From positions 457 through 64,456 of the forward strand of contig JACDOE010000003.1 in NCBI GenBank assembly GCA_017656255.1: DNA of 64,000 nt. The letters run 5' to 3'. Both the position numbers and the translations under genes were made by a program. The number at the start of each line of letters is the position of its first letter. Position 1 is the stretch's first letter. The notes below the pieces were generated by a model that saw only the letters and a program-made list of their open reading frames with translations, was not told the DNA's origin and did not search any database. Positions 1 to 23,251 of this stretch are shown in pieces. Source of the DNA: Bacillaceae bacterium. GTDB taxonomy: Bacteria > Bacillota > Bacilli > JACDOE01.

Positions 1-3000
1 TTTAAAAAGCGCCCTCGATAATTGCCAGATTGCCCGCGGAGACTCTATTAGTTCAACCAGTGAATTGATCCCTGCGTTCACCAGTCCATTAAATAAATTA
101 TCTATCTGATACCATGCTAATTTCCCCGTCGGATCCACATAATTAACCGGATTATTATACGCATACACATACCGGTTCAAACTCAGCGGATTGGTAATAT
201 CCCCCCGCCACTCATCCAGCGACAGGAACCGCCCAATCCTCGGATTATAGTACCTCGCCTGCAGATAATAGAACTGCGTCTTCCGATCCCAGTAATAGTG
301 CGCATAGCGGTACGGATTATACTTCACCAGTTTCGTCGTTATATCTTCTTCCTCTTCGCCTTCCACACTTTCCGTTCCTGCTTCATACACATCTGCCGTG
401 ACCGTTTCCTCTGCAGACGTCGTTTCAATGGTTGTCGTATCACCACTTAACGTCGTATCTTCTTCATTCGTATCTTCAACTGTTAACGTATCACTCGTAC
501 TCTCACTGGTACGATCTTCTGACTCTTTATCCTTCTTGTTCTTCTCCCATCCTTTCGCCTTGCCTCTTCCATTACCCGGATGGAAGTCATAGTCATCATT
601 ATCATCCGTCGGTCCCAGCCGCGAACCCGGTGTCCCGTTTCCGGTGTTCAGGTCGCCGATCCAGCCGATCCCTTCCCGCACGCGTTCGCCATACCGGTTG
701 TACATGTGGGTGACCAGTCCCCACTCGTCGTACTCATAGCGGGCGGCAATGTCCCCGTTTTGATCCGTCAGAGCCACCACATCACCGTGTCCGTTATACA
801 CATACCAGAAGGTTTCCCCTTCATAGGTGATGGACAGCGGTTGTCCGCCTTCATCATAAGTATATTCCGCAATGATGTTGCCGTCCTGGTCCGTTTCTTT
901 CGTGATCTGCCAGGTGTTGCCCTTGTAGTGGTAGTTGATCACCCACTGCGGATTCCCCTGGTGGTTGAACTGGATTTTCTTCGTCCGGCGGCCCTTCGCA
1001 TCATACTCATACTTCTGACCGAAGCCGTCGGGGAACGTCACCTTCACCAGCTGGCCTTTTGCATTCCACTCATAGACACTGCGGCCGTCGGTGGTCATGT
1101 TACCGGCGTCGTCATGATCAAAATCATAGGCTTCGAAACGAATATGGTTGGTCTTGTGCACCAGTTCGTTTCGCTCGTTGTATTCCCAAGTGGTTCCCAG
1201 CACGGTGTAGCCTTTTCCGACTTCACGCACCAGCTTGAACAACTCTTCATGTTCGCCGGGCGGCAGGTTGACTTCCCCGTTGACGATCTGGTCGATCACC
1301 GCCAGGATGTTTTCCACCTGTCCGGTCATGTGTTCATTGGGACCGTCAATCAAACCCAGTTTCTTGTACAGGCCCAGTTTCTTTCCTTTTCCACGTTTGA
1401 GGGCGTTTTCGATCCCTTTTTCAGACGACTTGCCCTTTCCTTTGTTGCTGTTTCCTTTTCCGCCTCCGTTACTGCCTTTGTCTTTACTTTTTCCTCCATC
1501 GCCGGCATTTCCTTTTCCGTTTCCTCCTTTAGCCGCGAAGATCGGCATGGATTCCGGATCGGCAGACGCCAGTTTATGCGCTGACACCTCTTCCGATGTT
1601 AACCGTGCGTCGTCCGGTTGATCCAGCGATGAACTCTTATTGCCTTTTCCTTTTCCGTTACCACCTTTATTTCCTTTGTCGCGCCCTTTGCCTTTACCCT
1701 TGCCTTTTCCTTCGCCCTCACCTTCTGCTTCCAGTTCGCCTTCCTTTCCCTTGATGGCCTGCAACACCATCTCAAGAAGTTGTTCCAGTTCAATCGTTTC
1801 ATGGCGATCCAATTCTTTTCCGCCGATAATGGCGGCGCGCGATGTGCGGTTTCCCGCTCCGTCATAGGTGTAGAGGCGGATGTCTCCTTCCGGCAGGGTG
1901 ACACGGACCAGTTGCTCCCGGCTGTCATATTCATAGGCGAAATGGCGTCCGTTTTCATTGACGGCGGTCACAAAGTCCCGCTTGTTGTGCTCATATTCGT
2001 TGAAGTACAGACTTTCTCCGTTCGGTCCGGTGGTTTCTTTGGTATCGATCAGATGCCCCGGCTTATATTCATAATGTGTAGTCAGTTGATTGGGCCAGAG
2101 CAGATCCTTGATGAAACCATCGGGATCATATTTGTATTCATATTTATAATTTTTGCCGTCAATGTAGGTGGTGGTCAGCCCTCTTTTATCCCGATCATAG
2201 TCCCGGGGCTGTCCGTTGACGATCTCCAGGTCCAGATCACCGTTGTCGTCATATTTGTACTCCATTTCATCTCCGTTCGGGTAAGTGACGGTGGCCACCT
2301 GTCCGTTGTCGTAGTAAGTGTACGTCGTGGTGCCGTCCGGTGTCTTTTCCCATTTGAGAGTGCCGTCATCATAGTATTCATAATCGATCCAGCGGCCGTC
2401 CGAATGTTCTTCATAGGTCAGGCGATGCAGATAATCATAGTCATAGGCGATCCACTGTCCACCCGGTTTCGATTCGTAGACCAGATTACCCGCCGGATCG
2501 TAGTCGAATCGGAACGTGTAGGACACACCGTTTAAGTACATGATTTCCTTCGTTTTCCGGTCAGCATAGTCATACCGGTACATCGTCAATTGGCCGTTGG
2601 GATCAATCTGGGATAACCGGTTTCCATTTTTATCATAACTGTATTCGGTGATCAGCCGATCTTCGTCACCAGGTTCATCAACCCGGACCAGGTTATCACG
2701 TTCATCATAACGATAATAGGTGGTGCCGTAGACAGGCTTGTCCACCGACAACCGGTTGCCGGCGTCATCGTACGTATAGGTGTAAGTCCCTTCCCGCGGC
2801 GTAATTTTTTTCTTTAAACGGCCGGCATCATCATAGGCATACTCTATGCGGTCTCCGCGTTTGTCGGTCTCCCAGACTTTCCGGCCACCGACGTCATAAC
2901 CGAATTGATAGACGTATCCTTCTCCATCTTTTTCATAGATTTTCTGGCCGCGCAGATTATACTCCCGTTCCACATCCCGTCCCAGCGGACGGCGAATGGC

Positions 3001-6000
3001 TTTGACATAACCGGCCGGCGTGTATTCATAGCTCGTCCAGATCCCTTCCGGATCCACTTCTGTTTTCAGTTGTCCTTCTTCATCATAGGTGTAACGGGTC
3101 GTGTTGCCTCGTTCATTAGTAAACCGAATCCGCAGGCCACGGGGATCATACTCATAGCGGCGGGTGACCTTTTCACCGCCGATTCTTTTCCCTTCACGGG
3201 TTTCTTCAATAACTCGGCCTTCTTTATCATAGCCGTACACCGTGATATTTCCCAGCGGATCTTCCTGTACCACCAGGTTTCCCTGGCCGTTATAGGCCAG
3301 CTTCACTTCCGTTTTCGGTGTATCATCAGATTCATTCGCTTCTCCCAATTGTTTAAAGGACGTGACATATCCTTCCCCGTTGTAGCCAAAGATGGCGGCA
3401 TTGCCTTCCTGGTCGATTTCCAGGACACGATTGCCCGCTGTATCAAACGCCATATAACTGACACTATTATCGGGCCACTCCGTCTTGATTTTACGTCCGG
3501 AGACATCATAAACATATTCATATTCACGAATTTCCAGATCTCCGTTTCGATCATTGTATTCTTTTTTCAACGTCATCCGGCCGTGATCGTCATAATCATA
3601 GCGGATTTTCAGTCCGGAAGGCTCTTCCAATTTCTCCAGTTGTCCCAGGGCGTTAAAGTCATATTCCGTCACGGCATAATTGTTGCCGTCCAGCTGCTCA
3701 CGCACTTTTTTCTTGTTGCCCCAGGCGTCGTAATCATAGTCCACCCGCTGTGTTTTGCCATCACGGGTGACCTGTTCGATGGTATAGTCCAGTTGTTCAT
3801 ACTGGTTGTAAACATACTGTTTGGTTTTGCCTTCCTCGTTGACATGTCTGGTGATTTTACCAAACACATCGTACTCATAGGTTTCCTCTTCATTGGACGG
3901 ATGAATGGTTTTCACGACATTGCCCTGCGTATCATAGACCGTTGTCGTCTCGTGATAGACCAGCTCCCCGTCTTCATCAAAGGCAGGCGTAAGGGTCACG
4001 GTGGTCAGGCCTTCGTAGCGGTACTCGGTGGTGTACCCTTCCGCATCTGTCTCAGTCAAGATTCTTCCTCTGGCATCGTAGGTATACGAGCGAGTTCCAA
4101 GCACTTCATGACCGGGATAGATGGGATCGTCAGTGCCGGACTTCAGCTGTTCCCCGTCCCACTCCGGAATCGGGCCGCCGAAGGTTTCTGTTTGGACCTG
4201 GCCGTTTTTATCATAGGTATAACGGGTCCAGGATCCTTCCGGTGTTTTTTCTTCAATTAATTGGCCGATGGCATTATACCGGTATTCACTGACCAGAACC
4301 TGAGGCTCTGTTTCTTCCCAGTCAAAGGGAATTTCGTCATGAAGATGAACCGAGCGGTACTCCTTTTCTATGACCCGGCGATCCCACAGATCATACACAT
4401 ACTCCGTTTTTCCCCCGTCGGGGCTGGTGACGCTTTTCAGGCGCCCGTATTCATCATACTCATAGTCCGTCGTCCACTCGCCGGGATCCGTGGTTACTTT
4501 ATCCCGTTCGCCGGCCAGGTTGTACACGGTGGTGATCGTTTCTCCCACCGGATTTTTTTCCTCGATTAACAGGCCTCGGTTATCATACTTGTACTTATAG
4601 ACCAGAGGTTGTTCGGATGACCCAACCGGTTTTGATCTTTCCTCGGTCACATTCCCCATGCCATCCACTGTGTATGTGGTTTCCAGGGTTTCAGAGGTAC
4701 GGGTGATCTGGTGCCCCCCCTCATCATAGGTGTAAGCCATCGATTCCCTGCGGGTCTGGGCGCTCTTTTTGTCATACTGGACATGGGTCTGTACCTGTCC
4801 GAGTGTGTTGTAAGTCCATTCCTCAATCAGGCCATTGGGATGCTCGGCATAGATCCGCTGCCCCCGGTTGTTATACCGGTAGGTTGACGTTTTAGGCGTG
4901 CTGGAATCCGGATACAGGGTTTCCGAGATCCGGTTTCCGTTTTCATCGTACTGGTATGCATATTCCGCCTGATCCATGGCTCCGTCGCCGCTGGTATCAT
5001 AGCCATACCGGAGCAGATTTCCTTCCGCGTCATATTGATAGAGCGTGCTGTTTCCTTCACCATCCCGTTTTTCAATCAACAGTCCCCGGTCATCGTAATA
5101 TTTGGCCGTTACGATCTGGTACGGAGTGGTGCGGCCAAACGGATCACTGACATACTGTACTTTGACCATGGCCGTCAACTTTTTGCCGCTGGTGACCGGA
5201 ATATACTCCACCCGGTAGTCGTAAGGCTGTCCGCTTTCACGAATCAGATCATTATATTCGTTATACGAATAGGTCATGACGCGTCCTGCCGGGCTCCGCA
5301 TCATGGAGAGGCGATCCCGGTCATCATACTGGTACTGGGTCGTCCGCCCCAGCGGATCCGTGATTTTGACCAGGTTATTGCCGTCATAGAGATAATGGGT
5401 TTCGGCCGTTTCCAGGCCGTTTTCCGTTTCGACGACCTGTCTTTTCAGAGCGGGGCGTCCCTGTTCATCCCAGTGCCATTCATATTGGCCCAGGGGATTC
5501 ATGACGACGGCATACCCATCTTGATACCGGGCGCCGATAAATTCTTCGACCCCATCCTGGCTCCGGGTCATACTGATCCGTTCAATCCGGTTCTCACTCC
5601 CGTATTGCCAGGTGGTGGTCACCTGTCTGGCGTCAGTCACGGTATGGAGGCGGTTCAATTCATCATAGGTAAACGTGGTGGTATATCCCATCACATCGGT
5701 ATAGGTGTTGAGACGGCCCTGTTCGTCATAACCGAATCCAATTGAGCGCGTCGTTCCCGCTTCCGGACCGGGCGCTTCAATCTTTTCCAGACGCCCGGTT
5801 TCCTCATTGTAATGAAACACGATTTTATGATTTTGTGTGGTGGTGAGGATTTCCTTCAGCCGGTAATTCATGCGCAGGTATTCCGGCACTTCTTCATACT
5901 TGTAGTCGATATAATTTCCGTAACGGTCATGATGCTGCAAAATGCGGCCGTCCGGTGTAAACAGGTCGTAGGAGAGATCCTCCCAGGTGATCAGATACTG

Positions 6001-7446
6001 ATCTTTTTCATTGCGGCTTAATTGCGGATAATACTGTTGCTGTCCGCCGACATAGGTGGTATAGGACGAACCGTTTTTTTCAAACCGGTACCTGGTCCCG
6101 TCTGTGGCGATCCAGCTTACCGTACCGTCAGGCCACAGGGTGAGGGTACTGTCGAAATTAAGCGTCCATCCGTACCCCAGCCAGCCTTTGCGCCTGTTTT
6201 GATGGTTGTACACCAGTGTCGCATTCAGATCCAGTCCGATACTCGGCTGGGTAAAACCTTCAAACTCCTGCATCGCATTGCCGCTGAACAGATTGAGGGT
6301 GACATACTTGCCGGCCACCTCTCCGGACGCCTGCGGCCAGAAGGACTGATCCCCCATATGGGCCAGCACTGGATAAGCAGCGACGGTTTCCACCGTCTCA
6401 TTTCCCGCATAGTCCCGGATGGTGATAGACAGTTGCTCTTCCTGCGAACGGACGGCTGCCACCGCATGCAGCGGGTGGTCATCCATCGCGTGTTCCGACG
6501 GGCTTCCGCTTGTCTTTAACCGGTTGAGGCCGCTGACCTCATCGCGCATTTCAATCCCCAGTTGTTCACCCATATCATGGACGGCGATCAGGGCCGGAGC
6601 TTCCCGGTCCAGAATTATCTTGTTGTATTCCGGTGCATAACCGGGGGCGGTTTTGGTGACATAATCAGCCGTATCCTCTTCATCTTCCGGAGGAATTCGG
6701 AAGGTGACCGAGACGGATTCTGCTTTGAGATACCATTCATAGATGCCGTCCGGTACGTCCTGTCCGCTGACATCTTTTCCGTTCCAGGTGAAGGTGTTGG
6801 TTCCGCTGTGATTGGTCTGGGTTCCCCGAATCTGGTAAGTCGCATCGGTTCTCAAGTCATGCACATAGATGGAGACCGGGTACCCGTTTGGGGCATTCGT
6901 CGGATCTCCTTCCTGGGCATTCACCCAGCTGGACAGACGGTCATTCCAGGAAAAGGTGACCGATGTTTCACCCTGTCCCACCGGTGAAAAGGCTTCTGTA
7001 CTCTGCCCGGACACACTCAGGTAACTTCCGCCGCCTCCAGAGCGGGGCAGAAGATCCGGCATTTCTCCATCATTAAAAACCTGTACGCCGTCCAGCTCAT
7101 GGGGTTTGGGTGGTGTTTTATCCACGACCGGTTCCGGCCAGGGGGGAGCCGGTTGCTGAAGCAGTTGTTGCAGGTCGTTATCTGCTTCTGCTGTCATGGT
7201 ATTGGTTGTGTCCGTTTGCACAGTCTGCTCATCGCTTCCGCTGGTATCCGTGTCGGCGGCGACCAGCAGATTCTCCAGTTTGTCATAGGTGGTTTCCGCT
7301 GCACGGGCAGTAGATGTAAAGATGGCGAGCCAGCTGTCGGACGGAAGCAGGCCGAAGACAAGGGTGAAACTTAACACCCATGCCAGCCCGTTCCGCAGCA
7401 GGCGGCGCCATAATCGGCGTTTTTTGACATGATGATTCATGTTCAT
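1..7446 (-). CDS. Secreted RHS/YD-repeat polymorphic toxin precursor (2482 codons visible; C-terminal toxin tip runs off the left edge)
   Basis: Hand translation from ATG 7446 (SD GGAGAGGAG 8 nt upstream) gives signal peptide MNMNHHVKKRRLWRRLL..FTSTARA and an FlgD-Ig-like FTWNGKDVSGQDVPDGIYEW. Many YD repeats follow (YDxxGRL/NRL). RHS core YRYAHYYWDRKTQFYYLQARYYNPRIGRFLSLDEW..NPVNYVDPTGK lies at ~106-330. 7446 nt is exactly 2482 codons down to base 1. I translated 7446->~5200 and ~1990->1 directly. For the middle I rely on all listed minus ORFs being in another frame and on the track omitting ORFs without an in-window stop. The listed plus-strand ORFs 398-7374 look like antisense artefacts. 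Confidence 0.9.
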   Translation of the reverse strand, partial: MNMNHHVKKRRLWRRLLRNGLAWVLSFTLVFGLLPSDSWLAIFTSTARAAETTYDKLENLLVAADTDTSGSDEQTVQTDTTNTMTAEADNDLQQLLQQPAPPWPEPVVDKTPPKPHELDGVQVFNDGEMPDLLPRSGGGGSYLSVSGQSTEAFSPVGQGETSVTFSWNDRLSSWVNAQEGDPTNAPNGYPVSIYVHDLRTDATYQIRGTQTNHSGTNTFTWNGKDVSGQDVPDGIYEWYLKAESVSVTFRIPPEDEEDTADYVTKTAPGYAPEYNKIILDREAPALIAVHDMGEQLGIEMRDEVSGLNRLKTSGSPSEHAMDDHPLHAVAAVRSQEEQLSITIRDYAGNETVETVAAYPVLAHMGDQSFWPQASGEVAGKYVTLNLFSGNAMQEFEGFTQPSIGLDLNATLVYNHQNRRKGWLGYGWTLNFDSTLTLWPDGTVSWIATDGTRYRFEKNGSSYTTYVGGQQQYYPQLSRNEKDQYLITWEDLSYDLFTPDGRILQHHDRYGNYIDYKYEEVPEYLRMNYRLKEILTTTQNHKIVFHYNEETGRLEKIEAPGPEAGTTRSIGFGYDEQGRLNTYTDVMGYTTTFTYDELNRLHTVTDARQVTTTWQYGSENRIERISMTRSQDGVEEFIGARYQDGYAVVMNPLGQYEWHWDEQGRPALKRQVVETENGLETAETHYLYDGNNLVKITDPLGRTTQYQYDDRDRLSMMRSPAGRVMTYSYNEYNDLIRESGQPYDYRVEYIPVTSGKKLTAMVKVQYVSDPFGRTTPYQIVTAKYYDDRGLLIEKRDGEGNSTLYQYDAEGNLLRYGYDTSGDGAMDQAEYAYQYDENGNRISETLYPDSSTPKTSTYRYNNRGQRIYAEHPNGLIEEWTYNTLGQVQTHVQYDKKSAQTRRESMAYTYDEGGHQITRTSETLETTYTVDGMGNVTEERSKPVGSSEQPLVYKYKYDNRGLLIEEKNPVGETITTVYNLAGERDKVTTDPGEWTTDYEYDEYGRLKSVTSPDGGKTEYVYDLWDRRVIEKEYRSVHLHDEIPFDWEETEPQVLVSEYRYNAIGQLIEEKTPEGSWTRYTYDKNGQVQTETFGGPIPEWDGEQLKSGTDDPIYPGHEVLGTRSYTYDARGRILTETDAEGYTTEYRYEGLTTVTLTPAFDEDGELVYHETTTVYDTQGNVVKTIHPSNEEETYEYDVFGKITRHVNEEGKTKQYVYNQYEQLDYTIEQVTRDGKTQRVDYDYDAWGNKKKVREQLDGNNYAVTEYDFNALGQLEKLEEPSGLKIRYDYDDHGRMTLKKEYNDRNGDLEIREYEYVYDVSGRKIKTEWPDNSVSYMAFDTAGNRVLEIDQEGNAAIFGYNGEGYVTSFKQLGEANESDDTPKTEVKLAYNGQGNLVVQEDPLGNITVYGYDKEGRVIEETREGKRIGGEKVTRRYEYDPRGLRIRFTNERGNTTRYTYDEEGQLKTEVDPEGIWTSYEYTPAGYVKAIRRPLGRDVEREYNLRGQKIYEKDGEGYVYQFGYDVGGRKVWETDKRGDRIEYAYDDAGRLKKKITPREGTYTYTYDDAGNRLSVDKPVYGTTYYRYDERDNLVRVDEPGDEDRLITEYSYDKNGNRLSQIDPNGQLTMYRYDYADRKTKEIMYLNGVSYTFRFDYDPAGNLVYESKPGGQWIAYDYDYLHRLTYEEHSDGRWIDYEYYDDGTLKWEKTPDGTTTYTYYDNGQVATVTYPNGDEMEYKYDDNGDLDLEIVNGQPRDYDRDKRGLTTTYIDGKNYKYEYKYDPDGFIKDLLWPNQLTTHYEYKPGHLIDTKETTGPNGESLYFNEYEHNKRDFVTAVNENGRHFAYEYDSREQLVRVTLPEGDIRLYTYDGAGNRTSRAAIIGGKELDRHETIELEQLLEMVLQAIKGKEGELEAEGEGEGKGKGKGKGRDKGNKGGNGKGKGNKSSSLDQPDDARLTSEEVSAHKLASADPESMPIFAAKGGNGKGNAGDGGKSKDKGSNGGGKGNSNKGKGKSSEKGIENALKRGKGKKLGLYKKLGLIDGPNEHMTGQVENILAVIDQIVNGEVNLPPGEHEELFKLVREVGKGYTVLGTTWEYNERNELVHKTNHIRFEAYDFDHDDAGNMTTDGRSVYEWNAKGQLVKVTFPDGFGQKYEYDAKGRRTKKIQFNHQGNPQWVINYHYKGNTWQITKETDQDGNIIAEYTYDEGGQPLSITYEGETFWYVYNGHGDVVALTDQNGDIAARYEYDEWGLVTHMYNRYGERVREGIGWIGDLNTGNGTPGSRLGPTDDNDDYDFHPGNGRGKAKGWEKNKKDKESEDRTSESTSDTLTVEDTNEEDTTLSGDTTTIETTSAEETVTADVYEAGTESVEGEEEEDITTKLVKYNPYRYAHYYWDRKTQFYYLQARYYNPRIGRFLSLDEWRGDITNPLSLNRYVYAYNNPVNYVDPTGKLAWYQIDNLFNGLVNAGINSLVELIESPRAIWQLSRALFK

Positions 7447-7494
7447 TTTGCAATCTCCTCTCCTGATTTTGATTAATCTGAATCTCATAAGAAT

Positions 7495-7583: not shown

Positions 7584-7684
7584 TCCGGTACGGCAGCAGG
7601 GCAGTCATGGCCGTCGGCTGGCGGCGGCTTTAGACTCCCGGCTTTGTGTCGCCTCCTTTCGGCAGACGAAACCTTTTCTCCGGA
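7584..7684 (-). promoter_or_regulatory. Candidate c-di-GMP-I (GEMM-I) riboswitch aptamer
   Basis: Minus-strand RNA reads UCCGGAGAAAAGGUUUCGUCUGCC-GAAA-GGAGGCGACACAAAGCCGGGAGUCUAAAGCC..GACUGCCCUGCUGCCGUACCGGA. The GAAA..GACaCAAAGCC..CUAAA core resembles the Vc2 aptamer as I remember it. P1 can form as UCCGG/CCGGA. The 5' junction deviates from the GGCAAACC consensus. Confidence 0.5.
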
Positions 7685-7906: not shown

Positions 7907-8128
7907 ATAGCGGAATTTTTTTCCGCTATTATGCGGTTTTCCTCGATTTTTTAATAAATAGGTGAGAAAATTTCCGCTATGTGCCTCAATTAAAAATTAT
8001 GCGAAGTATTCGACCCTATTAGCGGAACATTTTCCCCCTATTATTTGGAATCTCCCGCGTTTTGGAGAAATAGAGGAACAAACTTCCGTTACATATTGCG
8101 GTCCTTGATATGATTCGAGGTATTCGAC
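7907..8128. repeat. Hairpin/dyad-module array, locus L1 (4 modules)
   Basis: Modules: ATAGCGGAAtttttttCCGCTAT, AATAGGTGAGAAAATTTCCGCTAT, ATTAGCGGAACATTTTCCCCCTATT, AATAGAGGAACAAACTTCCGTTAC. Box ATTATGCGAAGTATTCGACC at 7996-8015 sits between modules 2 and 3. The same architecture recurs at 16341, 31497 and 43650. Confidence 0.85.
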
Positions 8129-8340: not shown

Positions 8341-8868
8341 TCAAAAGTCAATGCCATGGAATCCACCTAAAATCCGCGGATCATAATCAAGTTCCGCTGC
8401 AATCGTTTCCTGATGCCCGACACCATCTGAAGTTCTCCAGTGAATGATGAAATACGTGCGCTCAACAAGATCACGGACACCCAATTCATCCGGCGGATAT
8501 GAACTTCTACCCCCTGTCACAAAAGAGGCGTTGTCGTCTAAACGGTCAGCTGAGACACTATAACTGGAGTGAGGGGTGGCACCATCCTTAAAATAATCAT
8601 AGACGTCCACTTTGATTCTCCCGGTTAATTGATTGGGATCCCCTAAATACGTCACGTTTGCACTCCCCTGCATGGCTCCATGACCGGATATCCGTACAAA
8701 TTCATAGTCTGTGATATTCCAGTGTTCTCCCTGTCCCTTCATCTTAAGAAAATAACTATTGTTATGGATTGTAGTCGGGAAATAAACCTTGACGACAGTG
8801 AATGTTAGTAAATTGGTTAAGATTATAATGCCAATCATCCATTTTATATCGATTTTCATGTCCGCCAT
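8341..8868 (-). CDS. Hypothetical membrane-anchored protein (N-terminal TM helix)
   Basis: 175-aa ORF with N-terminal hydrophobic segment WMIGIIILTNLLTFTVV. AT-rich by eye. I recognise no family. Confidence 0.55.
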   Translation of the reverse strand: MADMKIDIKWMIGIIILTNLLTFTVVKVYFPTTIHNNSYFLKMKGQGEHWNITDYEFVRISGHGAMQGSANVTYLGDPNQLTGRIKVDVYDYFKDGATPHSSYSVSADRLDDNASFVTGGRSSYPPDELGVRDLVERTYFIIHWRTSDGVGHQETIAAELDYDPRILGGFHGIDF

Positions 8869-11564: not shown

Positions 11565-12185
11565 ATGAATGATTTTCCTTCGTCCATGCGGCATTTGATG
11601 AAGTTGGCAGAAAAAATGGGTAAAATTGGTCTCCATAACCATTCATGGGATATGTTAAAGCAGATGAAAGATTTAATGGATGATGATTTCTGGTCGGAAC
11701 TGGAGAAGTTGCAACAGTTGGGTGTTCACGGTGCGGACCGGGACAGTCATGATAAAGATGACACCGTTATTCAAAAGAATAAGTCCGGCAACAAAAAACG
11801 ATCGTCAAATGTTTATAATTTGAAGTATGCGGCGGATACCCGATCAAAAGAGTATGTAAATCCTCCCGTTGATGTTTATCAAACCATCGGTAAGGTGATT
11901 GTCTGTTGTGCGTTGCCGGGGCTGGATAAGAACAGTTTAAAGATCTCGCTTACGGAAGGTCGCCTTTTGATGCTGGAAGGTAAAATCAGACAACATGATT
12001 TTGGCCGAAATCCCGAATTTGTGGTTCAGCAGGAGCGACAGCACGGTAAGTTCCTGCGCCGGATTGAACTGCCGTGCCGGGTGAAGTCTGATGATGTCAG
12101 TAAGTCGTATAAAAACGGGATTCTGGAGATGGTATTTTCCAGGGTGATCGGGGATGAGAGTGAGTATCTGGAGGTGGATTGGTGA
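11565..12185 (+). CDS. Hsp20/alpha-crystallin family protein with long N-terminal extension (spore-coat CotM/CotP-like context)
   Basis: C-terminal ~100 aa reads [58 protein letters not shown], an alpha-crystallin domain pattern. Confidence 0.8.
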   Translation: MNDFPSSMRHLMKLAEKMGKIGLHNHSWDMLKQMKDLMDDDFWSELEKLQQLGVHGADRDSHDKDDTVIQKNKSGNKKRSSNVYNLKYAADTRSKEYVNPPVDVYQTIGKVIVCCALPGLDKNSLKISLTEGRLLMLEGKIRQHDFGRNPEFVVQQERQHGKFLRRIELPCRVKSDDVSKSYKNGILEMVFSRVIGDESEYLEVDW

Positions 12186-12997: not shown

Positions 12998-13095
12998 ACA
13001 AAAAATGGATAGCCGATCATGCTATCCATCTCAAAAACATTCACTGACAGACATCGTCAATCCCATTCAAACCTCTGCTCGCGCAAATGGGTGAG
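12998..13095 (-). pseudogene. Third remnant of a yuiH-like 3' end plus terminator hairpin
   Basis: The reverse complement of 13057-13095 reads LTHLREQRFEWD*, compared with the intact YuiH C-terminus DPWKEQRFAWD*. Hairpin ATGGATAGC-N7-GCTATCCAT plus a T-run at ~13001-13030 parallels the yuiH terminator. Confidence 0.7.
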
Positions 13096-14262: not shown

Positions 14263-14393
14263 TGTTTCACCTTTTAATCGAATAGGTTATGACGTGATGG
14301 ATTAACTTTTTCTTGTCATCCGTATATTTCACGAAGTCATTGTCCGAGAATTGATAGACTAAATAAAAGAACAATAAATCTACTATTAGACAG

Positions 14394-14402
14394 ATTATAC
14401 CA
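14394..14402 (-). promoter_or_regulatory. Extended -10 promoter element (TGGTATAAT) for the lipoprotein gene
   Basis: Minus strand reads ..ccattataTGGTATAATctg.. ~130 nt upstream of ATG 14262. No clear -35. Confidence 0.4.
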
Positions 14403-14438
14403 TATAATGGTTTGAAGCGGTTCGGGTAAACGTATGTT

Positions 14439-14644
14439 AAAAAAATGGACAACCCCTCGGCCATGCATTTTTTATCAATAATTAAAAAAATACCATCAAT
14501 ACCATGCAAACCTCTGCTCGCACCAGGGATCGTTTCATATGTTATCCGTTCCGTTCCCAGAATCCTTCCCTGTCTTCCTTCATAGACTCTATCCCGCGCA
14601 CCCTTTTGGCACTTTTCCAGAAATACAGATGCGGCACCACGGCA
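14439..14644 (-). pseudogene. yuiH 3'-end fragment (duplicate of 15572-15778), disrupted
   Basis: Aligns base-for-base with the intact yuiH tail plus terminator. It reads [33 protein letters not shown] and then, after a frame shift, DPWCEQRFAWY*. Confidence 0.8.
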
Positions 14645-14780
14645 AATTCCTGCGCCGGATTGAACTGCCGTGCCGGTGAAGTCTGATAATGTCAGCAAGA
14701 CCTATAAAAACGGGATTCTAAAGATGGTTTTTACCAGGGTCATCGGGGATGAGAGTGAGTATCTGGAGGTGGATTGGTGA
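14637..14780 (+). pseudogene. hsp20 3'-end fragment (duplicate of 12041-12185), frameshifted
   Basis: High identity by eye (roughly nine in ten positions) to the hsp20 tail, including the identical last ~40 nt and the TGA. It has a 1-nt deletion (gtgccggTgaag vs gtgccggGTgaag) and no upstream coding part. Confidence 0.85.
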
Positions 14781-14837
14781 GTTTATATCCACGCTTCACC
14801 TGCAAAAAATTGAGTAAAGTACGGATACGTTTTCTTG

Positions 14838-14865
14838 TTTACAACAGGTGAAGATGTTATATAAT
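14838..14865 (+). promoter_or_regulatory. Sigma-A-like promoter for the NYN gene
   Basis: TTTACA (14838-14843), 16-nt spacer, TATAAT (14860-14865). Confidence 0.45.
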
Positions 14866-14926
14866 ATATATACAGAATTAATCGCTGTTGTTCACCAGTG
14901 TGTGGATGGCAGGTCAAGAGACAGCA

Positions 14927-14969
14927 GGGAGGTGCTTTAGTGCACCTCCCTCTATTATTTTAGGAGGTG
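14927..14969 (+). promoter_or_regulatory. Leader hairpin with decoy-SD/anti-SD/SD arrangement
   Basis: GGGAGGTGC-tttagt-GCACCTCCC is a perfect 9-bp stem. It is followed by TCTATTATTTTA and the true SD GGAGGTG (14963-14969). Confidence 0.45.
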
Positions 14970-14974
14970 TCTTG

Positions 14975-15532
14975 TTGGAGAATAGGACAGCTATTTTTAT
15001 TGACGGGGGATATCTGGATTCCATTCTTTTAACCAAAGGTAGAGCAAGAATTGATTACGAAAAATTGATCACCACCATGAGGGAGGATATTCCCCTTATT
15101 AGAGCTTATTATTATCATTGCCTTCCTTACCAATCTTCCAAATCTACAAAAGAAGAGTCTGATCAATTTGCACAGGCCCAACGATTTTTTAGAAGACTAA
15201 ATCGATTGGACAGCTTTACGGTTCGTCTTGGAAAACTGGCTTTTCGAGGTATAGACGATGAAGGAATTCCCATCTATGAACAAAAGAGAGTAGATGTTTA
15301 TTTGGCAACCGATCTGGTTATGCACAGTACAAAAAGAGTGATTAGTCATGCTGTTCTTTTAACAGGCGATAGTGATTTTATCCCTGCAATTGAGATAGCA
15401 AAATCCGAAGGTGTCCACATCACACTATATTATTGTAAGGATGACAGGTTAAGACCTCATGATGAATTGATTGATGCTGTTGATAATAGAAGAAAAATAA
15501 CACAAGATTTGATCGAAACCTGGAAAAGATGA
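14975..15532 (+). CDS. NYN/LabA-like (DUF88) domain protein, putative RNase (cargo gene 3)
   Basis: AIFIDGGYLDS.. and ..HAVLLTGDSDFIPAIEIAK.. are NYN/LabA motifs. TTG 14975 lies 5 nt after GGAGGTG. The track start at 14888 reads through the leader hairpin. Confidence 0.75.
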   Translation: MENRTAIFIDGGYLDSILLTKGRARIDYEKLITTMREDIPLIRAYYYHCLPYQSSKSTKEESDQFAQAQRFFRRLNRLDSFTVRLGKLAFRGIDDEGIPIYEQKRVDVYLATDLVMHSTKRVISHAVLLTGDSDFIPAIEIAKSEGVHITLYYCKDDRLRPHDELIDAVDNRRKITQDLIETWKR

Positions 15533-15571
15533 TGAATTAAGATCTAAAATGACTGCTTATGAGCAAGAAAC

Positions 15572-15601
15572 AAAAAAATGGACAGCCCCTCGGCCATCCA
15601 T
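15572..15601 (-). terminator. yuiH terminator
   Basis: Minus strand ATGGAtgGCCgaggGGCtgTCCAT plus TTTTTTT, downstream of stop 15628. Confidence 0.5.
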
Positions 15602-15627
15602 TCCTTATCATTCATTAAAAAATACTG

Positions 15628-16218
15628 TTAATCCCATGCAAACCTCTGTTCCTTCCACGGGTCGCCATACCTATGATATCCGTTCCGCTCCCAGAATCCT
15701 TCCCTGTCTTCCTTCATAAACTCTATCCCCCGCACCCATTTGGCACTCTTCCAGAAATACAGATGCGGCACCACGGCACGAAGCGGCCAGCCGTGATCCG
15801 GCGTCAACTCCTCACCATTGTGCTTGCGCGCTAGCAGGCTGGTCTCTCGCATGAAATCCTCCAGCGGAAGATTGGTAGTCCAGCCTTCCTCGGCGTGCAG
15901 CATGACATAGCGCGCTTCCGGTTTAATTTTCACATCCTTCAGGAGGTCCCGGACCAGCACCCCTTCCCAGGTATTATCCAGCTTCGACCAGCCGGTGACA
16001 CAGTGTATATCATTGTGGACCGTCGTCTGAGGCAACTGGAGAAATTCCTCCCACGTCCAGCGTTTTTCTTCTTCCACCAGGCCGAAAACACGAAGATCCC
16101 AGTTTTCCAGGTCAACCTTCGGCACATCCCCATAATGTAAAACAGGAAATCCCGTTGTGACACGCTGGTTGGGCGGTACCCGATCTCGCTTATTCCTCTC
16201 ATCGCTTCCCATCGTCAC
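15628..16218 (-). CDS. yuiH: Molybdopterin-binding oxidoreductase, sulfite-oxidase/MsrP-like (YuiH-like)
   Basis: 196 aa with ..[41 protein letters not shown].., the molybdopterin oxidoreductase domain pattern. Size and context match B. subtilis YuiH. Confidence 0.8.
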   Translation of the reverse strand: MTMGSDERNKRDRVPPNQRVTTGFPVLHYGDVPKVDLENWDLRVFGLVEEEKRWTWEEFLQLPQTTVHNDIHCVTGWSKLDNTWEGVLVRDLLKDVKIKPEARYVMLHAEEGWTTNLPLEDFMRETSLLARKHNGEELTPDHGWPLRAVVPHLYFWKSAKWVRGIEFMKEDREGFWERNGYHRYGDPWKEQRFAWD

Positions 16219-16340
16219 GTCCCTGCACCTCCGTCACAGTAGCTTCTCTTCCTATCTTACATCATACCCGGTATCTGGCAAGAGGATACAGCGCATTACC
16301 TCCTGACCGATTTATTGTCAGGTGTCGGGATCCAGGTTGA

Positions 16341-16540
16341 GTCGAAAATAATAAGGAACTTTATTTCCGCTATACCTTGAAAAAGAAGAATTTTAAATTT
16401 TTAAGTGAAAAATATTCCGCTATCCGCTTCAAATACTTCGCATAATATTGAGTTGCTTAACGGAAACCATTTCCTCTATTTTTTATAAAATGGGTAAAAC
16501 GTGGTGAAATAAAGGAAAAGATTTCCGCTATTATCCCGGT
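16341..16540. repeat. Hairpin/dyad-module array, locus L2 (4 modules, inverted relative to L1/L3)
   Basis: Modules: AATAAGGAACTTTATTTCCGCTAT, AAGTGAAAAATATTCCGCTAT, TTAACGGAAACCATTTCCTCTATT, AATAAAGGAAAAGATTTCCGCTATT. The box appears as its reverse complement, CAAATACTTCGCATAAT, at 16430-16446. Confidence 0.85.
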
Positions 16541-16643
16541 ATCCCCAAGTCCCATACCACCATCCCTATTTTCTACCATAAAGAAAAAAGCCGGCACCCG
16601 GCCGGCTTTTCCCTTTCACAAATCAAACCACAAATCAAACCAA

Positions 16644-19043
16644 CTAACCCAACTTCATCCGCTTCAACCGCAGTGAGTTGCTGACCACCGACACCGAACT
16701 GAACGCCATCGCCGCCCCGGCAATCCACGGCGCGAGAAGCCCCAGCGCCGCCACCGGAATCCCCACCGAATTATAAAACAGGGCCCAGAACAGATTCTGC
16801 CGGATATTTTTCATCGTCAGGCGGCTGACAATGATCGCTTCCGGAATCGCGCGCAGATCCCCGCGCATCAGCGTGACATCCGCCGCTTCCATGGCAATGT
16901 CCGTACCGGTTCCGATCGCCATCCCCACATCAGCCACGGCCAGGGCCGGCGCATCATTAATCCCGTCTCCGACCATCGCCACAGTGTACCCTTTTTCCTT
17001 CCACTTTTTCACTTCTTCCGCCTTGTCCTGCGGCAACACTTCCGCGCGAATCTCATCCACGCCCACCTGCTTGCCGATTGCTTCCGCTGTACGGCGGTTG
17101 TCGCCGGTCATCATCACCACTTTAATGCCCATCTGCTTCAGACGGTCGATGGCTTCCTTCGAACTATCCTTCACCGTATCGGCCACGGCGACCAGTCCGG
17201 CCAGTTCGCCGTCAACGGCTGCCAGCATCGCCGTCTTCCCTTCTTCTTCCAGACGTTCCTGTTCTGACAGAATGGCATCAACAGCAATGCCCTGCTGTTC
17301 CATCAGGCGCCGGGTGCCCACCAGTACCTTTTTGCCGTCTACTTCCCCTTCCACACCGTAACCGGGAATGGCATTGAAGGAAGACGGTTGTTCCGGTCGC
17401 AACCCTTTAGCCTCCGCCCCTTTCACAATCGCATGGGCCAGCGGGTGCTCCGACCCTTTTTCCAGGGAGGCCACCCACGTGAGCAATGCTCCCTCATCAA
17501 ATCCATCCAGGGTAATCACATCGGTTAATTCCGGCTCCCCTTTCGTGATCGTGCCAGTTTTGTCCAGAACAACAAGGTCAATCTCCCGGGTGTGCTCCAG
17601 ATGTTCACCACCCTTGAACAGCACCCCGTTTTCGGCTCCTTTACCTGTTCCCACCATGATCGAGGTCGGGGTGGCCAGTCCCAGGGCGCACGGGCAGGCT
17701 ATTACCAGCACAGCCGTAAAATTGATGAGCGCATGGGCAAAATTGCCGGGATCGACGATGAAATACCAAATGAGGAACGTCACCACCGCAATCGCGACCA
17801 CAATCGGGACGAAAATACCGGAGATTTTATCAGCCATGCGCTGGATCGGTGCCTTGGATCCCTGAGCTTCTTCCACCACTTTCACGATTTGCGCAAGGGC
17901 CGTTTCCTTGCCCACCCGGGTCGCTTCCATTTTCAGTGTGCCGTTTTTATTGATCGTCGCTCCGATCACCGTATCGCCCGGCTTTTTATCTACGGGGATA
18001 CTTTCCCCGGTCAGCATCGATTCATCAACGGCGGAGTTACCTTCCAGCACTTTGCCGTCTACGGGAATTTTTTCACCGGGGCGAACCAGAATCGTATCGC
18101 CGATCTGTACATCTTCCACCGGGATTTCCTGTTCCTTTCCGTCCCGGATTACCAGTGCCGTTTTGGCCTGCAGGCCCATCAGTTTTTTAATCGCTTCCGA
18201 CGTGCGACCCTTGGCACGGGCTTCCAGCAGTTTACCGAGCAGAATCAATGTAATTAAAATGGCACTGGTTTCGAAGTACAGCTGGTGATACTGCCCACGA
18301 AAGATCTGAACCAGACTGAAGAAATAGGCGGCTGAGGTTCCCATCGCCACCAGCACATCCATGTTGGCGGATCCGTTTTTCAAATTTTTATAGGCACCGC
18401 GGTAGAATTGCCAGCCGATCACGAACTGGATCGGGGTGGCCAGAACAAACTGAAACCACGGGTCCAGAAACAGCGCCGGTACCCACTCTTCTGTGAAAAA
18501 ATGGGCCAGCATCGTCCAGAGCAACGGAATGGACAATATCGCGGAAATGATAAACTTGTTGCGCTGCCGTTCGATTTCTTTACTTTTCCGGTCCGCCTGG
18601 TCCCCGTTGTCGTCGGAAACCGTGCGGGCGTCATATCCCAGGTCCTTGATTTTTCGAATGACATCGTCAACGGATACTACGGCCGGGTTATATTCTACCG
18701 TTCCTTTTTCCGTGGCCAGATTAACGGTGGCATTTGAAACGCCGGCCATCCGGTTCAACCCTTTTTCAATACGGGCCGAACAGGCCGCGCAGGTCATGCC
18801 CTGAATCTCCAGTTCCGCTTTTTCATGGACCACACCGTAGCCCAGATCTTCAATTTTTTGTTCAATATCAGACAGCTTGACCTTGTCTTCATCAAAGGTG
18901 ACTGTGGCCTTTTCCATCGTCAGATTGACATTGGCTTCCTGAACTCCGTCCATTTTGGACAGGACCTTCTCAATCCGCGTGGAGCAGGCTGCACAGGTCA
19001 TTCCTTCAATTTGCAGGGTCTGTTTGCTTGCCATGAGCCTCAC
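16644..19043 (-). CDS. copA: Copper-translocating P1B-type ATPase CopA
   Basis: Two N-terminal HMA domains ([26 protein letters not shown]), CPC in a TM helix, [13 protein letters not shown]. Confidence 0.95.
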
Positions 19044-19090
19044 ACTCCTTTTATATAGCCAATTGCAGCAGACTGGTGTCAGAACCGGTT

Positions 19091-19113
19091 ACATACCCTT
19101 ATGGGGTATATGT
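19091..19113. promoter_or_regulatory. CsoR-type operator-like palindrome between copZ and copA
   Basis: ACATACCC-TTAT-GGGGTATATGT is a near-perfect dyad with a C/G tract, resembling known CsoR operators as I remember them. Confidence 0.5.
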
Positions 19114-19188
19114 CAGGATGAAAGAAGGGAGTGGCCTTCTTAACCACTCCTCTCCCTTTTCCCTGATGTTTGCCGCCAATCATGCTGC

Positions 19189-19395
19189 TTACTTGACGTC
19201 ATATCCCTGTTCTTCAATAGCTTCCTTCATCTGGTCGACGCCGACCTTGCTGTCATCATATTCGACGGTGACATTGTTTTCTTCCAGGCTCACTTTCGCA
19301 CTGGAAACACCGTCAAGCTTGTTCAGTGCTCCTTCAACAGCCTTGACACAGTGTCCACAGCTCATCCCTTCTACCTGAAGCGTGATGTTTTTCAT
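19189..19395 (-). CDS. copZ: Copper chaperone CopZ
   Basis: 68 aa with VEGMSCGHCVKAVE, an HMA fold motif. Confidence 0.9.
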   Translation of the reverse strand: MKNITLQVEGMSCGHCVKAVEGALNKLDGVSSAKVSLEENNVTVEYDDSKVGVDQMKEAIEEQGYDVK

Positions 19396-19414
19396 AAATG
19401 GATCACTCCTTTAT

Positions 19415-19771
19415 TTATTTCATCAGTTTTTTTAACGTTGCCATCACTTCATCAATCACTTCATCTTCGCCGGCCTGAATGCGTTCCTTTACACAGCTTT
19501 TCATATGATTTTCCAGCAGAAGCCGGCCGACAGAGTGTAACGCTGACTGAATCGCCGCCAGCTGGTTCAACACATCATCACAATAAGTATCCCTTTCAAT
19601 CATGCCTTTTACTCCCCGGATCTGGCCTTCGATCCGGTTAAGACGGTGGGTGAGATCCCGTTTCACTTTATCCGAATGGTGACTTTTTCGGCCGCTGAGA
19701 TGACAGGCCGGTACTCCCGTTTCTATAACCGATGTTTCCTGCTCGGTCGGTGTGACTTTAGGGTCTTCCAC
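19415..19771 (-). CDS. csoR: Copper-sensing repressor CsoR
   Basis: ..LNRIEGQIRGVKGMIERDTYCDDVLNQLAAIQSALHSVGRLLLENHMKSC.. shows the CsoR/RcnR family C-H-C pattern. Confidence 0.9.
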   Translation of the reverse strand: MEDPKVTPTEQETSVIETGVPACHLSGRKSHHSDKVKRDLTHRLNRIEGQIRGVKGMIERDTYCDDVLNQLAAIQSALHSVGRLLLENHMKSCVKERIQAGEDEVIDEVMATLKKLMK

Positions 19772-19797
19772 TGGAATCGACTCCTTTCAATAGGCAA

Positions 19798-19820
19798 TAT
19801 ACCATACCCCTCTACCGTAT
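19798..19820. promoter_or_regulatory. Second, imperfect CsoR-box-like dyad upstream of csoR
   Basis: TATACCATACCCCTCTACCGTAT has ATAC..GTAT arms and a C-rich centre. It starts 27 nt upstream of the csoR start codon. Confidence 0.35.
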
Positions 19821-19955
19821 GTAAATGGGTAAAGTGTCAAAACTATTCTCTATCATCACCTGATTACGATCATAATATGTTATCGGGTCATAATTTGATT
19901 TTAATATCACAGACTACAGATAACCACCCAAACCAATCCGGAGGAGGTATCAAAC

Positions 19956-20111
19956 GTGCGGCGTAAACCCCTGCAAAACAGTGTTGAAGCAACTCGAAAA
20001 GAAATCATGGAGGAATTCGGAACCGACAATCCGGATCTGATTGAAAAAATCCTGGATGCCGATGAAGAAGGAAGAAAACCCGTAAAAAAAGATCGTCCCG
20101 GACCCTCATAA
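19956..20111 (+). CDS. Small hypothetical protein (51 aa, GTG start; not in the ORF track)
   Basis: GGAGGAGG lies 7 nt before GTG 19956. Product: VRRKPLQNSVEATRKEIMEEFGTDNPDLIEKILDADEEGRKPVKKDRPGPS. A strong terminator follows immediately. Confidence 0.4.
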   Translation: MRRKPLQNSVEATRKEIMEEFGTDNPDLIEKILDADEEGRKPVKKDRPGPS

Positions 20112-20166
20112 GCAAAAAACAACATCCCGTCCCCACCCGAAAGTGGTCGGGATGTTGTTCTTTTTC
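20112..20166. terminator. Bidirectional terminator (small ORF / pepA)
   Basis: AACAACATCCCG-N18-CGGGATGTTGTT is flanked by an A-run and a T-run. Confidence 0.7.
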
Positions 20167-20184
20167 CCCTTTTAAAGAAGATCT

Positions 20185-21687: not shown

Positions 21688-21867
21688 ATTTCACACCTCC
21701 GCATTTTTTTCACCTGTTTTATCATAACAATCTTGATTCATCGAGAAAAGAAAGAAAAGCGCACTCTTTAAATTTCTAACCGAGACTGTAAAAACAGGGT
21801 TTGTTTCTGGTACAATAGAAATACATTTTTTATCGCAAATTGTTGATTCACGGAAAGGAAGACATAC

Positions 21868-22338
21868 ATGTCCAAGCTACTCGCCAATGACCCACTGATC
21901 GCGGCCCTGATTGGTGTTGTGGTCGCTCAAGTCATCAAAATTCCCATTGATTTTGCAACATCCCGCAAATGGAACTGGAGTCTGATGTTCAGCACCGGCG
22001 GAATGCCCAGTTCCCACTCCGCGGCCGTATCGGCCCTGGCCACGGCAGTTGCGATTGAACATGGCCTGGATTCTACCTCTTTTGCCATCAGCACCGTTTT
22101 TGCCATCATCGTGATGTATGATGCTGCCGGGATCCGCCGACATGCCGGACAGCATGCCGCCCTGCTCAATCAGTTGATGGAAGATTTACAGCATATTATT
22201 TCCGATGTCAAAGAGTTGAGAGTCCGCCCCAAAGAAGAAAAACGCGAAAAACTGAAGGAACTGCTGGGGCACAAGCCGGCAGAGGTTTTGATCGGGAGTT
22301 TGCTCGGCATTATCATCGCCTTATCCATTTATACGTAA
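21868..22338 (+). CDS. yuiD: Divergent PAP2 family membrane protein (YuiD-like)
   Basis: ..TGGMPSSHSAAVSALATAVA..YDAAGIRRHAG.. is the DUF212/acid-phosphatase-related pattern. Confidence 0.8.
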   Translation: MSKLLANDPLIAALIGVVVAQVIKIPIDFATSRKWNWSLMFSTGGMPSSHSAAVSALATAVAIEHGLDSTSFAISTVFAIIVMYDAAGIRRHAGQHAALLNQLMEDLQHIISDVKELRVRPKEEKREKLKELLGHKPAEVLIGSLLGIIIALSIYT

Positions 22339-22411
22339 TTACGTCATATAGAAAACGGGCACGCTTTTATGAAAAACGTGCCCGTTCGTTATGATACCTG
22401 TCCATTTGGTC

Positions 22412-23071: not shown

Positions 23072-23166
23072 ATGAACGACACCTCCTCTGGATTCTATTA
23101 CTCTCCAGAAAAGGTGTTTTTTATGCATCTTTTTTCCTGTTATCAGGTTTGTGATCGCAATCATTG

Positions 23167-23239: not shown

Positions 23240-23251
23240 TGTTCTTTGAAT

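Follow-up and report, generated by a model that had tools for sequence, protein, structure and literature searches.

Four intergenic regions in a 64-kb stretch of the Bacillaceae bacterium contig JACDOE010000003.1 (the window, meaning that whole stretch) are very probably dispersed mosaic arrays of palindromic units, closest in kind to the bacterial interspersed mosaic elements (BIMEs) of enterobacteria and the Neisseria intergenic mosaic elements (NIMEs). That the family is common to many Paenibacillaceae and to some other Bacillales is well supported. The evidence consists of the homology of the four window copies, the recurrence of unit and layout in other genomes, and a pattern of substitution between sister species in which the arms of the units and the lengths of loops and spacers are kept.

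Unit and box counts in the window were compared with those in shuffled sequence. The dyad ATAGCGGAA-N5-TTCCGCTAT, allowing up to 3 mismatches, was found 11 times against 0.04 expected, and all 11 matches fell inside the four regions that a first-pass annotation had singled out. The arm 10-mer TTTCCGCTAT (up to 1 mismatch) was present 22 times against 4.3 expected, and a 19-nucleotide box, ATTATGCGAAGTATTCGAC (up to 3 mismatches), 4 times against 0.01 expected. End-to-end alignment confirmed that the four loci are homologous copies of one composite of ∼190-220 bp, as the annotation had proposed in describing four regions of one architecture free of open reading frames (ORFs), and no window ORF of 80 or more amino acids overlapped any of the arrays. 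The aligned composite reads unit H1, spacer A, unit H2, spacer B with the box, unit H3, spacer A′ and unit H4; locus 2 runs in the opposite direction to the other three. The four palindromic units are 23 bp long with the core TAGCGGAA-N5-TTCCGCTA, separated by gaps of ∼28, 38-39 and ∼28 bp, and the box, which is specific to the window's genome, occupies the long spacer. Spacers A and A′ are alike and a second, weaker box lies 3′ of H4 at locus 1, which argues that the quartet is a tandem dimer of a ∼112-bp unit-A-unit-B block. Recounting gave the 15 units previously reported (4, 4, 5 and 2 at loci 1 to 4, respectively), although two of the four at locus 2 are badly degenerate, and the compensatory double change claimed for one unit was also seen, unit 31548-31570 being altered at the same stem position on both arms. 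Other details required revision. The conserved arm is 8-9 bp (T-A-R-C-G-G-A-A) rather than 10-11 bp, the extra A/T being local to the window, and the reported spacing of ∼50-60 bp resolves into two sharp classes of 50-51 and 61 bp, start to start. The box, said to be carried by all loci, was found at 7996, 16428 (minus strand) and 31585, with the weaker copy at 8110, whereas locus 4, a half element, retains only an ATTATG..TAT remnant. The arrays and their parts are as follows.

Array 1, 7907-8128, plus strand: complete quartet and second box, between the 3′ end of ORF 8341-8868 (minus strand) on one side and a c-di-GMP riboswitch and RHS toxin gene on the other
Array 1 unit H1, 7907-7929: ATAGCGGAA-TTTTT-TTCCGCTAT, perfect
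Array 1 unit H2, 7958-7980: ATAGGTGAG-AAAAT-TTCCGCTAT, degenerate left arm
Array 1 box, 7996-8014, plus strand: ATTATGCGAAGTATTCGAC, in the long spacer
Array 1 unit H3, 8019-8041: TTAGCGGAA-CATTT-TCCCCCTAT
Array 1 unit H4, 8070-8092: ATAGAGGAA-CAAAC-TTCCGTTAC
Array 1 second box, 8110-8128, plus strand: weaker, 3 mismatches; shows two tandem unit-spacer A-unit-spacer B repeats
Array 2, 16349-16531, minus strand: quartet in inverted orientation, flanked by the copA terminator (16589-16603) and by the promoter region of molybdopterin oxidoreductase gene 15628-16218 (minus strand)
Array 2 unit H4, 16349-16373: degenerate, one shortened arm
Array 2 unit H3, 16399-16423: degenerate
Array 2 box, 16428-16446, minus strand: 2 mismatches
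Array 2 unit H2, 16457-16479: TTAACGGAA-ACCAT-TTCCTCTAT
Array 2 unit H1, 16509-16531: ATAAAGGAA-AAGAT-TTCCGCTAT
Array 3, 31498-31760, plus strand: quartet and fifth unit, flanked by an ABC-2 permease gene's terminator (31859-31881) and by glpK-glpD, with glpK 374 bp away
Array 3 unit H1, 31498-31520: perfect
Array 3 unit H2, 31548-31570: A-variant ATAACGGAA..TTCCGTTAA, both arms changed at the same stem position
Array 3 box, 31585-31603, plus strand: 1 mismatch
Array 3 unit H3, 31609-31631: GTAACGGAA-ATCTT-TTCCCCTAT
Array 3 unit H4, 31660-31682: ATAGCGGAA-AAGAT-TTCACCTAT
Array 3 fifth unit, 31735-31760: GTAACGGTA-N8-TTCCGCTAT, 75 bp past H4, corresponding to a third spacing class found elsewhere (72-75 bp)
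Array 4, 43652-43755, plus strand: half element of two units and the ATTATG..TAT box remnant, between convergent genes 42723-43610 (plus strand) and 44352-45554 (minus strand)
Array 4 unit H1, 43652-43673: AGAGCGGAA-ATTT-TTCCGCTAT, with a bidirectional terminator-like shape, 42 bp past the stop codon at 43610
Array 4 unit H2, 43700-43722: ATAGAAGAA-AAAAG-TTCCGCTAT

Relative to their co-directional neighbours, arrays 1 and 3 are antisense but array 2 is sense, indicating that orientation is not tied to transcription. The arrays do lie downstream of gene 3′ ends, as the annotation had it, but three of the four stand between co-directional genes and thus also upstream of the next gene. The window itself is ordinary chromosome of a spore-forming member of the Bacilli; its genes include the gerP operon, csoR-copZ-copA, glpK-glpD, an extracytoplasmic function (ECF) sigma/anti-sigma pair, a spore-photoproduct-lyase-like gene, pabB/pabC and menaquinone radical-SAM genes.

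A scan for perfect units with one genome per species yielded at least 117 stretches; a relaxed matcher was then applied to the listed loci, which were thus first found through perfect units, and the family counts given here come from the matches listed. At least 307 array units were recognized in at least 64 loci. Among the matches listed, multi-unit arrays were nearly all from Paenibacillaceae (Paenibacillus, Cohnella, Gordoniibacillus, Ammoniphilus and related metagenome-assembled genomes, MAGs), with a textbook quartet in Solibacillus faecavium and a tandem array of three units in Alicyclobacillus ferrooxydans. The window's own genome had no locus among the listed matches, and a metagenome scan for box plus arm returned 0 matches. 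The consensus unit is T-A-R-C-G-G-A-A, 5-7 free bases and T-T-C-C-G-Y-T-A, with A at position 1 in ∼67% of units and G in ∼4%. Start-to-start distances were sharply quantised into classes of 51-53 bp (161 cases), 61-64 bp (52 cases) and 71-75 bp (14 cases), and four units was the commonest array size (33 of 68 arrays). Where quartets were defined by successive start-to-start spacings of 48-54, 59-66 and 48-54 bp (n = 46), all 46 kept one loop length (5, 6 or 7) throughout their four units, and spacers measured 27-28 and 38-39 bp regardless of loop length. A loop-6 quartet stands adjacent to a loop-7 quartet in some genomes, in either order, and in Cohnella species homogeneous tandem arrays reach 9 units, at a period of 51-52 bp. 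Loop and spacer sequences are unrelated between genomes; their lengths are kept. Within a genome, spacers are conserved in the window and in P. foliorum, and are fully diverged in Paenibacillus sp. YN15 and P. mesotrionivorans. That copies in one genome share spacers, as the window copies share the box, indicates that they arose by duplication or mobilisation inside the lineage. The recurrence of unit and layout in many genomes supports a genuine dispersed repeat family, as the annotation had postulated, and not local regulatory DNA; the strict quartet with fixed spacer and loop lengths, the conservation across genera and the evidence of purifying selection go beyond that proposal.

Three further observations concern distribution. 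A variant unit, ATAGCGATG-N5-CATCGTTAT, occurs in Cohnella ginsengisoli (locus L017, 3489-3615 and ∼3937) and in locus L082; its array has a 51-52-bp period and directly adjoins standard units in L017. A standard quartet was present on contig c43 (1.25 Mb) of a MAG labelled ‘Magnetospirillum sp.’ (L095), where the flanks are 82-87% identical to those of a Bacillota MAG (L039); a wrong label or contamination, of this contig or of the entire MAG, is the probable cause. A pair of units 52 bp apart was found at 2744-2820 of L007, the catalogued viral sequence IMGVR_UViG_3300048925_000549, which may derive from a prophage together with host flank or from a phage that bears the element.

Constraint was estimated from six orthologous array pairs of sister species, with flanks 83-96% identical. 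Pooled over the six pairs, the parts of the arrays differed as follows.

Arms: 28 of 468 differ (6%), 0 indel bases
Loops: 35 of 146 differ (24%), 0 indel bases
Spacers: 185 of 619 differ (30%), 4 indel bases

Arms therefore evolve 3-5 times more slowly than loops and spacers between sister species. When units perfect in either species were dropped, a step aimed at reducing ascertainment bias, 23 of 216 arm bases differed (p = 3e-9 versus spacers). From this comparison, the sequence of the arms and the lengths of loops and spacers appear to be under purifying selection in place, and the sequences of loops and spacers do not. Constraint on arms and lengths, with the sequence of loops and spacers left free, is the mark that a sequence-specific factor of fixed geometry leaves on the sites it reads. 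Such constraint is not expected of decaying selfish copies, or of an RNA hairpin that needs only to fold.

The genomic setting of the arrays was examined where neighbouring genes could be called (n = 62). Gene pairs were co-directional in 35 cases, convergent in 20 and divergent in 7, and in L011, L067, L105 and L073 the array takes up the whole interval between convergent stop codons. The arrays stay clear of promoter regions, like repetitive extragenic palindromic (REP) sequences and MITEs (miniature inverted-repeat transposable elements). Units also serve as insertion sites. An IS110-family element, whose protein has domains PF01548 and PF02371, interrupts a unit at the same point in Cohnella luojiensis (L015, 2904-4620) and Paenibacillus sp. 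YN15 (L052, 3649 onwards); the left junction, AATAG/TTATAATGAACGAAACCGACA, is identical in both genera, and on the right the junction reads ...GGTTTCGTTCAT/ATCAGCGGAA. An RNA guide directs the targeting of IS110 elements (PMC11208160, PMC11187229), and that of this element is presumably programmed for the palindromic unit. Comparable targets are the REPs of Pseudomonas, used by IS110/IS1111-family elements (PMC1525189), and the dRS3 dyads of Neisseria, which are integration sites for a phage-encoded transposase/recombinase (PMC1797815).

The databases hold no near kin of the window organism, and its nearest relatives have a spore photoproduct lyase protein only 64-66% identical to its own. The best of them, L127 (GCA_041686735.1), is collinear with the window over 20-54 kb at 56-88% amino-acid identity. 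No palindromic unit was found in 21 kb of L127 or in 21 kb of Microaerobacter geothermalis (L128), and the adh_short-glpK gap of L127 is only 72 bp. Arrays 3 and 4 each lie at one edge of a gene block that is present in the window and absent from L127, namely 31.5-37.5 kb (ECF sigma/anti-sigma, DinB, surface protein and ABC transporter) and 40.2-44.3 kb (tauE, pabB and pabC); no array accompanies four further indels of this region. The lack of arrays 3 and 4 in a collinear relative indicates that arrays are gained or lost with neighbouring DNA and are not conserved in place. Fixed positions would have spoken against a repeat family by the annotation's own reckoning, so this comparison favours one. 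The only coincidence of position over greater distance concerned the glycerol operon, upstream of which an array occurs twice, in the window (31498-31760, glpK-glpD) and in Cohnella (L013, 1013-1294, glpP-glpK-glpD), with differing upstream neighbours.

Comparison with known systems places the arrays nearest to BIMEs and NIMEs. REPs are imperfect palindromes of 20-40 bp outside genes, and the window units, of 22-26 bp, all lie outside ORFs of 80 or more amino acids. BIMEs likewise consist of short extragenic palindromic units in regular arrays with alternating short and long linkers (here 27-28 and 38-39 bp), and share with REPs a location at gene 3′ ends and their use as IS110/IS1111 insertion targets (PMC1525189; PMC2817692). 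REPs number more than 100 per genome; with 15 units in this 64 kb, many copies per genome may be a further likeness. Unlike BIMEs, the arrays have a preferred size of exactly four units and keep the same spacer and loop lengths from genus to genus; their hosts are Bacillales rather than enterobacteria or Pseudomonas. The alternating unit orientation of BIMEs cannot be defined here, since the array unit is almost perfectly symmetric. In NIMEs, dRS3 dyads (ATTCCC-N8-GGGAAT) flank RS spacers, and a site-specific DNA-binding recombinase has been proposed as their reader (PMC1797815). The two families have in common a dyad of ∼20 bp whose terminal arms are conserved and whose centre is free, arranged in arrays, and spacers that form genome-specific families. 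However, NIME spacers range from 19 to 214 bp with array size free, as against 27-28/38-39 bp and a preference for four units here; the unit is TAGCGGAA-N5-7-TTCCGCTA and not dRS3; and the phylum is not that of Neisseria. Functionally, the family would work like BIMEs and NIMEs, and it differs from them in its four-unit preference, its lengths fixed across genera and its Bacillales hosts.

Other repeats are less similar. The MITEs of Firmicutes (bcr1 of the Bacillus cereus group and the pneumococcal RUP and BOX) are also dispersed, intergenic, non-coding and stem-loop-rich at ∼100-300 bp, but they have defined ends or modules (boxA, boxB, boxC) and a sequence conserved throughout, whereas in the arrays conservation between genomes is limited to arms and lengths, and no target-site duplications were observed. 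Clustered regularly interspaced short palindromic repeat (CRISPR) arrays similarly alternate short, partly palindromic repeats with spacers of fixed length. This identity was rejected, as the spacers are homologous among the four loci, diverge by point substitution in orthologues and are alternately 28 and 39 bp long; no cas domains were revealed in the window by Pfam, and there was no significant Rfam match to a CRISPR repeat. The B. subtilis genome paper reportedly describes a 190-bp element repeated ∼10 times, a further candidate for comparison with the arrays. No description of the exact motif, or of repeats of this type in Paenibacillus, Cohnella or Bacillales, was found in the literature, and the REP surveys compared make no mention of Paenibacillus or Firmicutes. 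Rfam (version 15), searched in gathering mode with the window and in E-value mode with two arrays, gave the arrays only chance-level hits, the best with E-values of 0.2 or above and scores far below gathering thresholds. The annotation's remark that this is not a recognised repeat thus stands.

With respect to function, the favoured reading, at about even odds, is that the units are recognition sites for a putative sequence-specific DNA-binding or DNA-processing protein, the quartet building a defined multi-protein complex at operon boundaries. Recognition is concluded to occur at the DNA level, with a leaning towards duplex dyads, to which dimers of the putative protein would bind. The spacing classes correspond to ∼5, 6 and 7 helical turns, and loops are of fixed length and free sequence, as in the centre of a dimer operator; units ∼5, 6 and 5 turns apart could permit a single ∼190-bp nucleoprotein complex. 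In an alternative form of this step, extruded or single-stranded hairpins would be recognised, as REP-associated tyrosine transposases (RAYTs) and HUH enzymes do with REPs. The arrays occupy inter-operon gaps at gene 3′ ends, where some units may double as terminator hairpins and units are safe insertion targets for the IS110-family element, and they are duplicated or mobilised within a lineage and gained and lost between relatives. The mechanism, with its binding protein and its cellular role, is one that we infer. More tentatively still, and on balance doubtfully, the quartets might be a previously unrecognised, host-maintained Bacillales chromosomal element, a phased set of four dyads that assembles a nucleoprotein complex with a putative conserved protein.

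Several observations weigh against these proposals. The estimate of purifying selection is biased towards conserved arrays, because perfect units led to the loci. Edge-to-edge spacer length is steadier than the centre-to-centre period when loop length varies, so that strict helical phasing is not proven. A quarter of quartet units have an A-C or G-T mismatch at stem position 4, which also counts against a required hairpin, and inner units with extended stems of A and T runs in ∼12-15 of 46 quartets make a terminator role possible for part of the element. Some large scaffolds show one match only among those listed. No recurrent neighbouring gene emerged when 1180 ORFs from 63 array loci were clustered; the clusters are families widespread in Paenibacillus (AraC-type response regulators, histidine kinases and sugar ABC permeases), the genes next to arrays in genomes with few matches are housekeeping genes, and those between the two arrays of L104 include a ketoacyl synthase gene and ORFs without a Pfam match. 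Finally, no candidate binding protein was found, with no RAYT or transposase in the window and no RAYT in the 117 listed loci.

If the quartets are a host-maintained element, they might act, for example, as an insulator, a topological barrier or a recombination-docking site at operon boundaries, and would be a functional counterpart of BIMEs and NIMEs with a reader protein of their own rather than decaying selfish DNA. Proteobacteria have well-studied interspersed palindromic repeats (REP/RAYT, BIME and NIME), whereas none was found described for Paenibacillaceae, and the clear signature of constraint on arms, loop length and spacer length makes the search for a reader protein well posed. As a multi-copy target of IS110, which is of the bridge-RNA type, the unit also offers a ready target-guide pair in Gram-positive bacteria. 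In practice, the arrays may break short-read assemblies or be misannotated as CRISPR arrays or small-RNA genes.

The foremost rival of this proposal is a strict REP or REPIN (REP doublet) system, in which single-stranded hairpins would be bound and mobilised by a single-copy HUH/Y1 (RAYT-like) transposase encoded elsewhere in the genome; it is considered unlikely. The arrays resemble such a system in being regular sets of short extragenic palindromes that are targeted by IS110 as REPs are (PMC1525189), and in their patchy occurrence among lineages. At stem position 4 (G:C or A:T), covariation links the arms within a unit (odds ratio 6.3, p = 1e-7), and one orthologous unit had switched on both arms. 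In a Cohnella variant, TAGCG-ATG..CAT-CGTTA, three inner pairs are swapped on both arms (GAA/TTC to ATG/CAT) with the ATAGCG foot and a 52-bp period kept, which recalls a REP foot with variable upper stems, and in some units the stem is extended to 8-17 bp, its sequence differing from unit to unit. Covariation at the six flanking pairs, however, was only weakly above shuffled controls for all units and not above them in 91 loop-6 units, which argues against a required hairpin. There was no positive association at position 4 across spacers of the kind that inter-unit pairing in REPIN-like doublets would give, and no consistent internal asymmetry was found in the units, which are nearly perfect palindromes. 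The units also lack the GTAG/CGTC tag of REPs, having a symmetric ATAG...CTAT foot with G at position 1 so rarely. Pfam scans of the ∼55 window ORFs detected no transposase, recombinase or RAYT, in keeping with the first-pass annotation, and tblastn with E. coli RayT gave no match in the window or in the 117 listed loci, a weak argument because RAYTs are usually single-copy. Old copies keep intact arms under purifying selection, unlike decaying non-autonomous copies, and uniform loop length and fixed spacers are not known REP features.

The annotation had likened the arrays to REP/BIME elements, MITEs or a structured small RNA. The first comparison is the best, because of the regular palindromic units, alternating linkers, extragenic location and use by IS110; the other two do not hold up well. 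As a MITE, each array would be a non-autonomous transposon deletion derivative with two transposase-binding sites per end (units 1 and 2 on the left, 3 and 4 on the right), moved by a cut-and-paste or copy-and-paste mechanism. The fixed size of ∼190 bp, the four binding-site-like units, the spacers shared within a genome (the window box; P. foliorum) and the collinear relative without arrays would all suit this explanation. It is nonetheless improbable, since alignments of the window and P. foliorum copies revealed neither target-site duplications nor termini or terminal inverted repeats beyond the units, no locus had unit pairs flanking a transposase gene, tandem arrays reach 9 units with loop-6 and loop-7 quartets adjacent in either order, and orthologous copies are under purifying selection.

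An element acting as RNA, such as a 3′-end stabiliser, a bidirectional terminator or a multi-hairpin small RNA, is likewise given a low probability. Arrays lie at gene 3′ ends, some filling the gap between convergent stop codons, and terminator-like units are present in the window at 43654-43671, 31549-31569 (minus strand) and 31498-31520, with array 4 unit H1 and array 3 unit H2 meeting the terminator pattern. About a quarter of quartets have the extended inner stems with A and T runs already described. A terminator as the general role was rejected, since such runs are confined to a minority of units. Folding of the region is also much stronger than that of shuffled controls (z = -8.0 and -4.5), but low folding energy is automatic for repeated palindromes and the z-scores are thus uninformative. 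A hairpin that needs only to fold requires no fixed stem sequence, whereas here the stem sequence is conserved across families and the loop is free. On the sense strand of arrays between co-directional genes, G-U and A-C mismatches were balanced (37 versus 33), with no excess of G-U. Copies occur in both orientations relative to flanking genes, arrays 2 and 3 lie beyond separate intrinsic terminators, and no Rfam family matched.

Local operator arrays for a transcription factor of adjacent genes, for example of the glp operon, are very improbable. Dyads with fixed half-site spacing and the positions of array 3 and the Cohnella array upstream of glp genes are what such operators would show. However, neighbours are functionally unrelated across the 62 arrays, arrays are over-represented between convergent genes and under-represented between divergent ones, the window arrays lie 120-370 bp from the nearest start codons, and copies share spacers. 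The Chi sequence of B. subtilis is AGCGG, and clusters of such recombination hotspots are scarcely credible here: AGCGG does occur on both strands of each perfect unit, and arrays 3 and 4 do border window-specific gene blocks relative to L127, but a quarter of half-sites lose AGCGG because the variable position turns it into AACGG, no account is given of the conserved T2, A8 and A9, of dyad symmetry or of fixed lengths, and the B. subtilis sequence may not be the Chi of array-bearing taxa.

Further features were noted in the window. A c-di-GMP-I riboswitch at 7589-7683 (minus strand; 43.1 bits against a gathering threshold of 35) is located directly 5′ of a giant RHS/YD-repeat polymorphic-toxin gene (1-7449, minus strand; more than 2480 amino acids), which continues past the window start; this placement would put a contact-dependent toxin under c-di-GMP control. 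Stretches of 50-107 bp with 88-94% identity recur at 12030-12185, 14439-14780 and 15572-15778, and also at 13046-13093, surrounding the 3′ ends of the Hsp20 gene, ORF 14267-14698 and the molybdopterin-oxidoreductase gene, and may represent a local mosaic of partial gene duplications. The only public contig with the window's leucyl aminopeptidase gene, the short-read contig L001 (Logan SRR13776092), corresponds to window 14751-31404. One of its ends, at 14751, falls inside this repeat region, and the other stops 93 bp short of array 3, where the palindromic repeat may have caused an assembly break.

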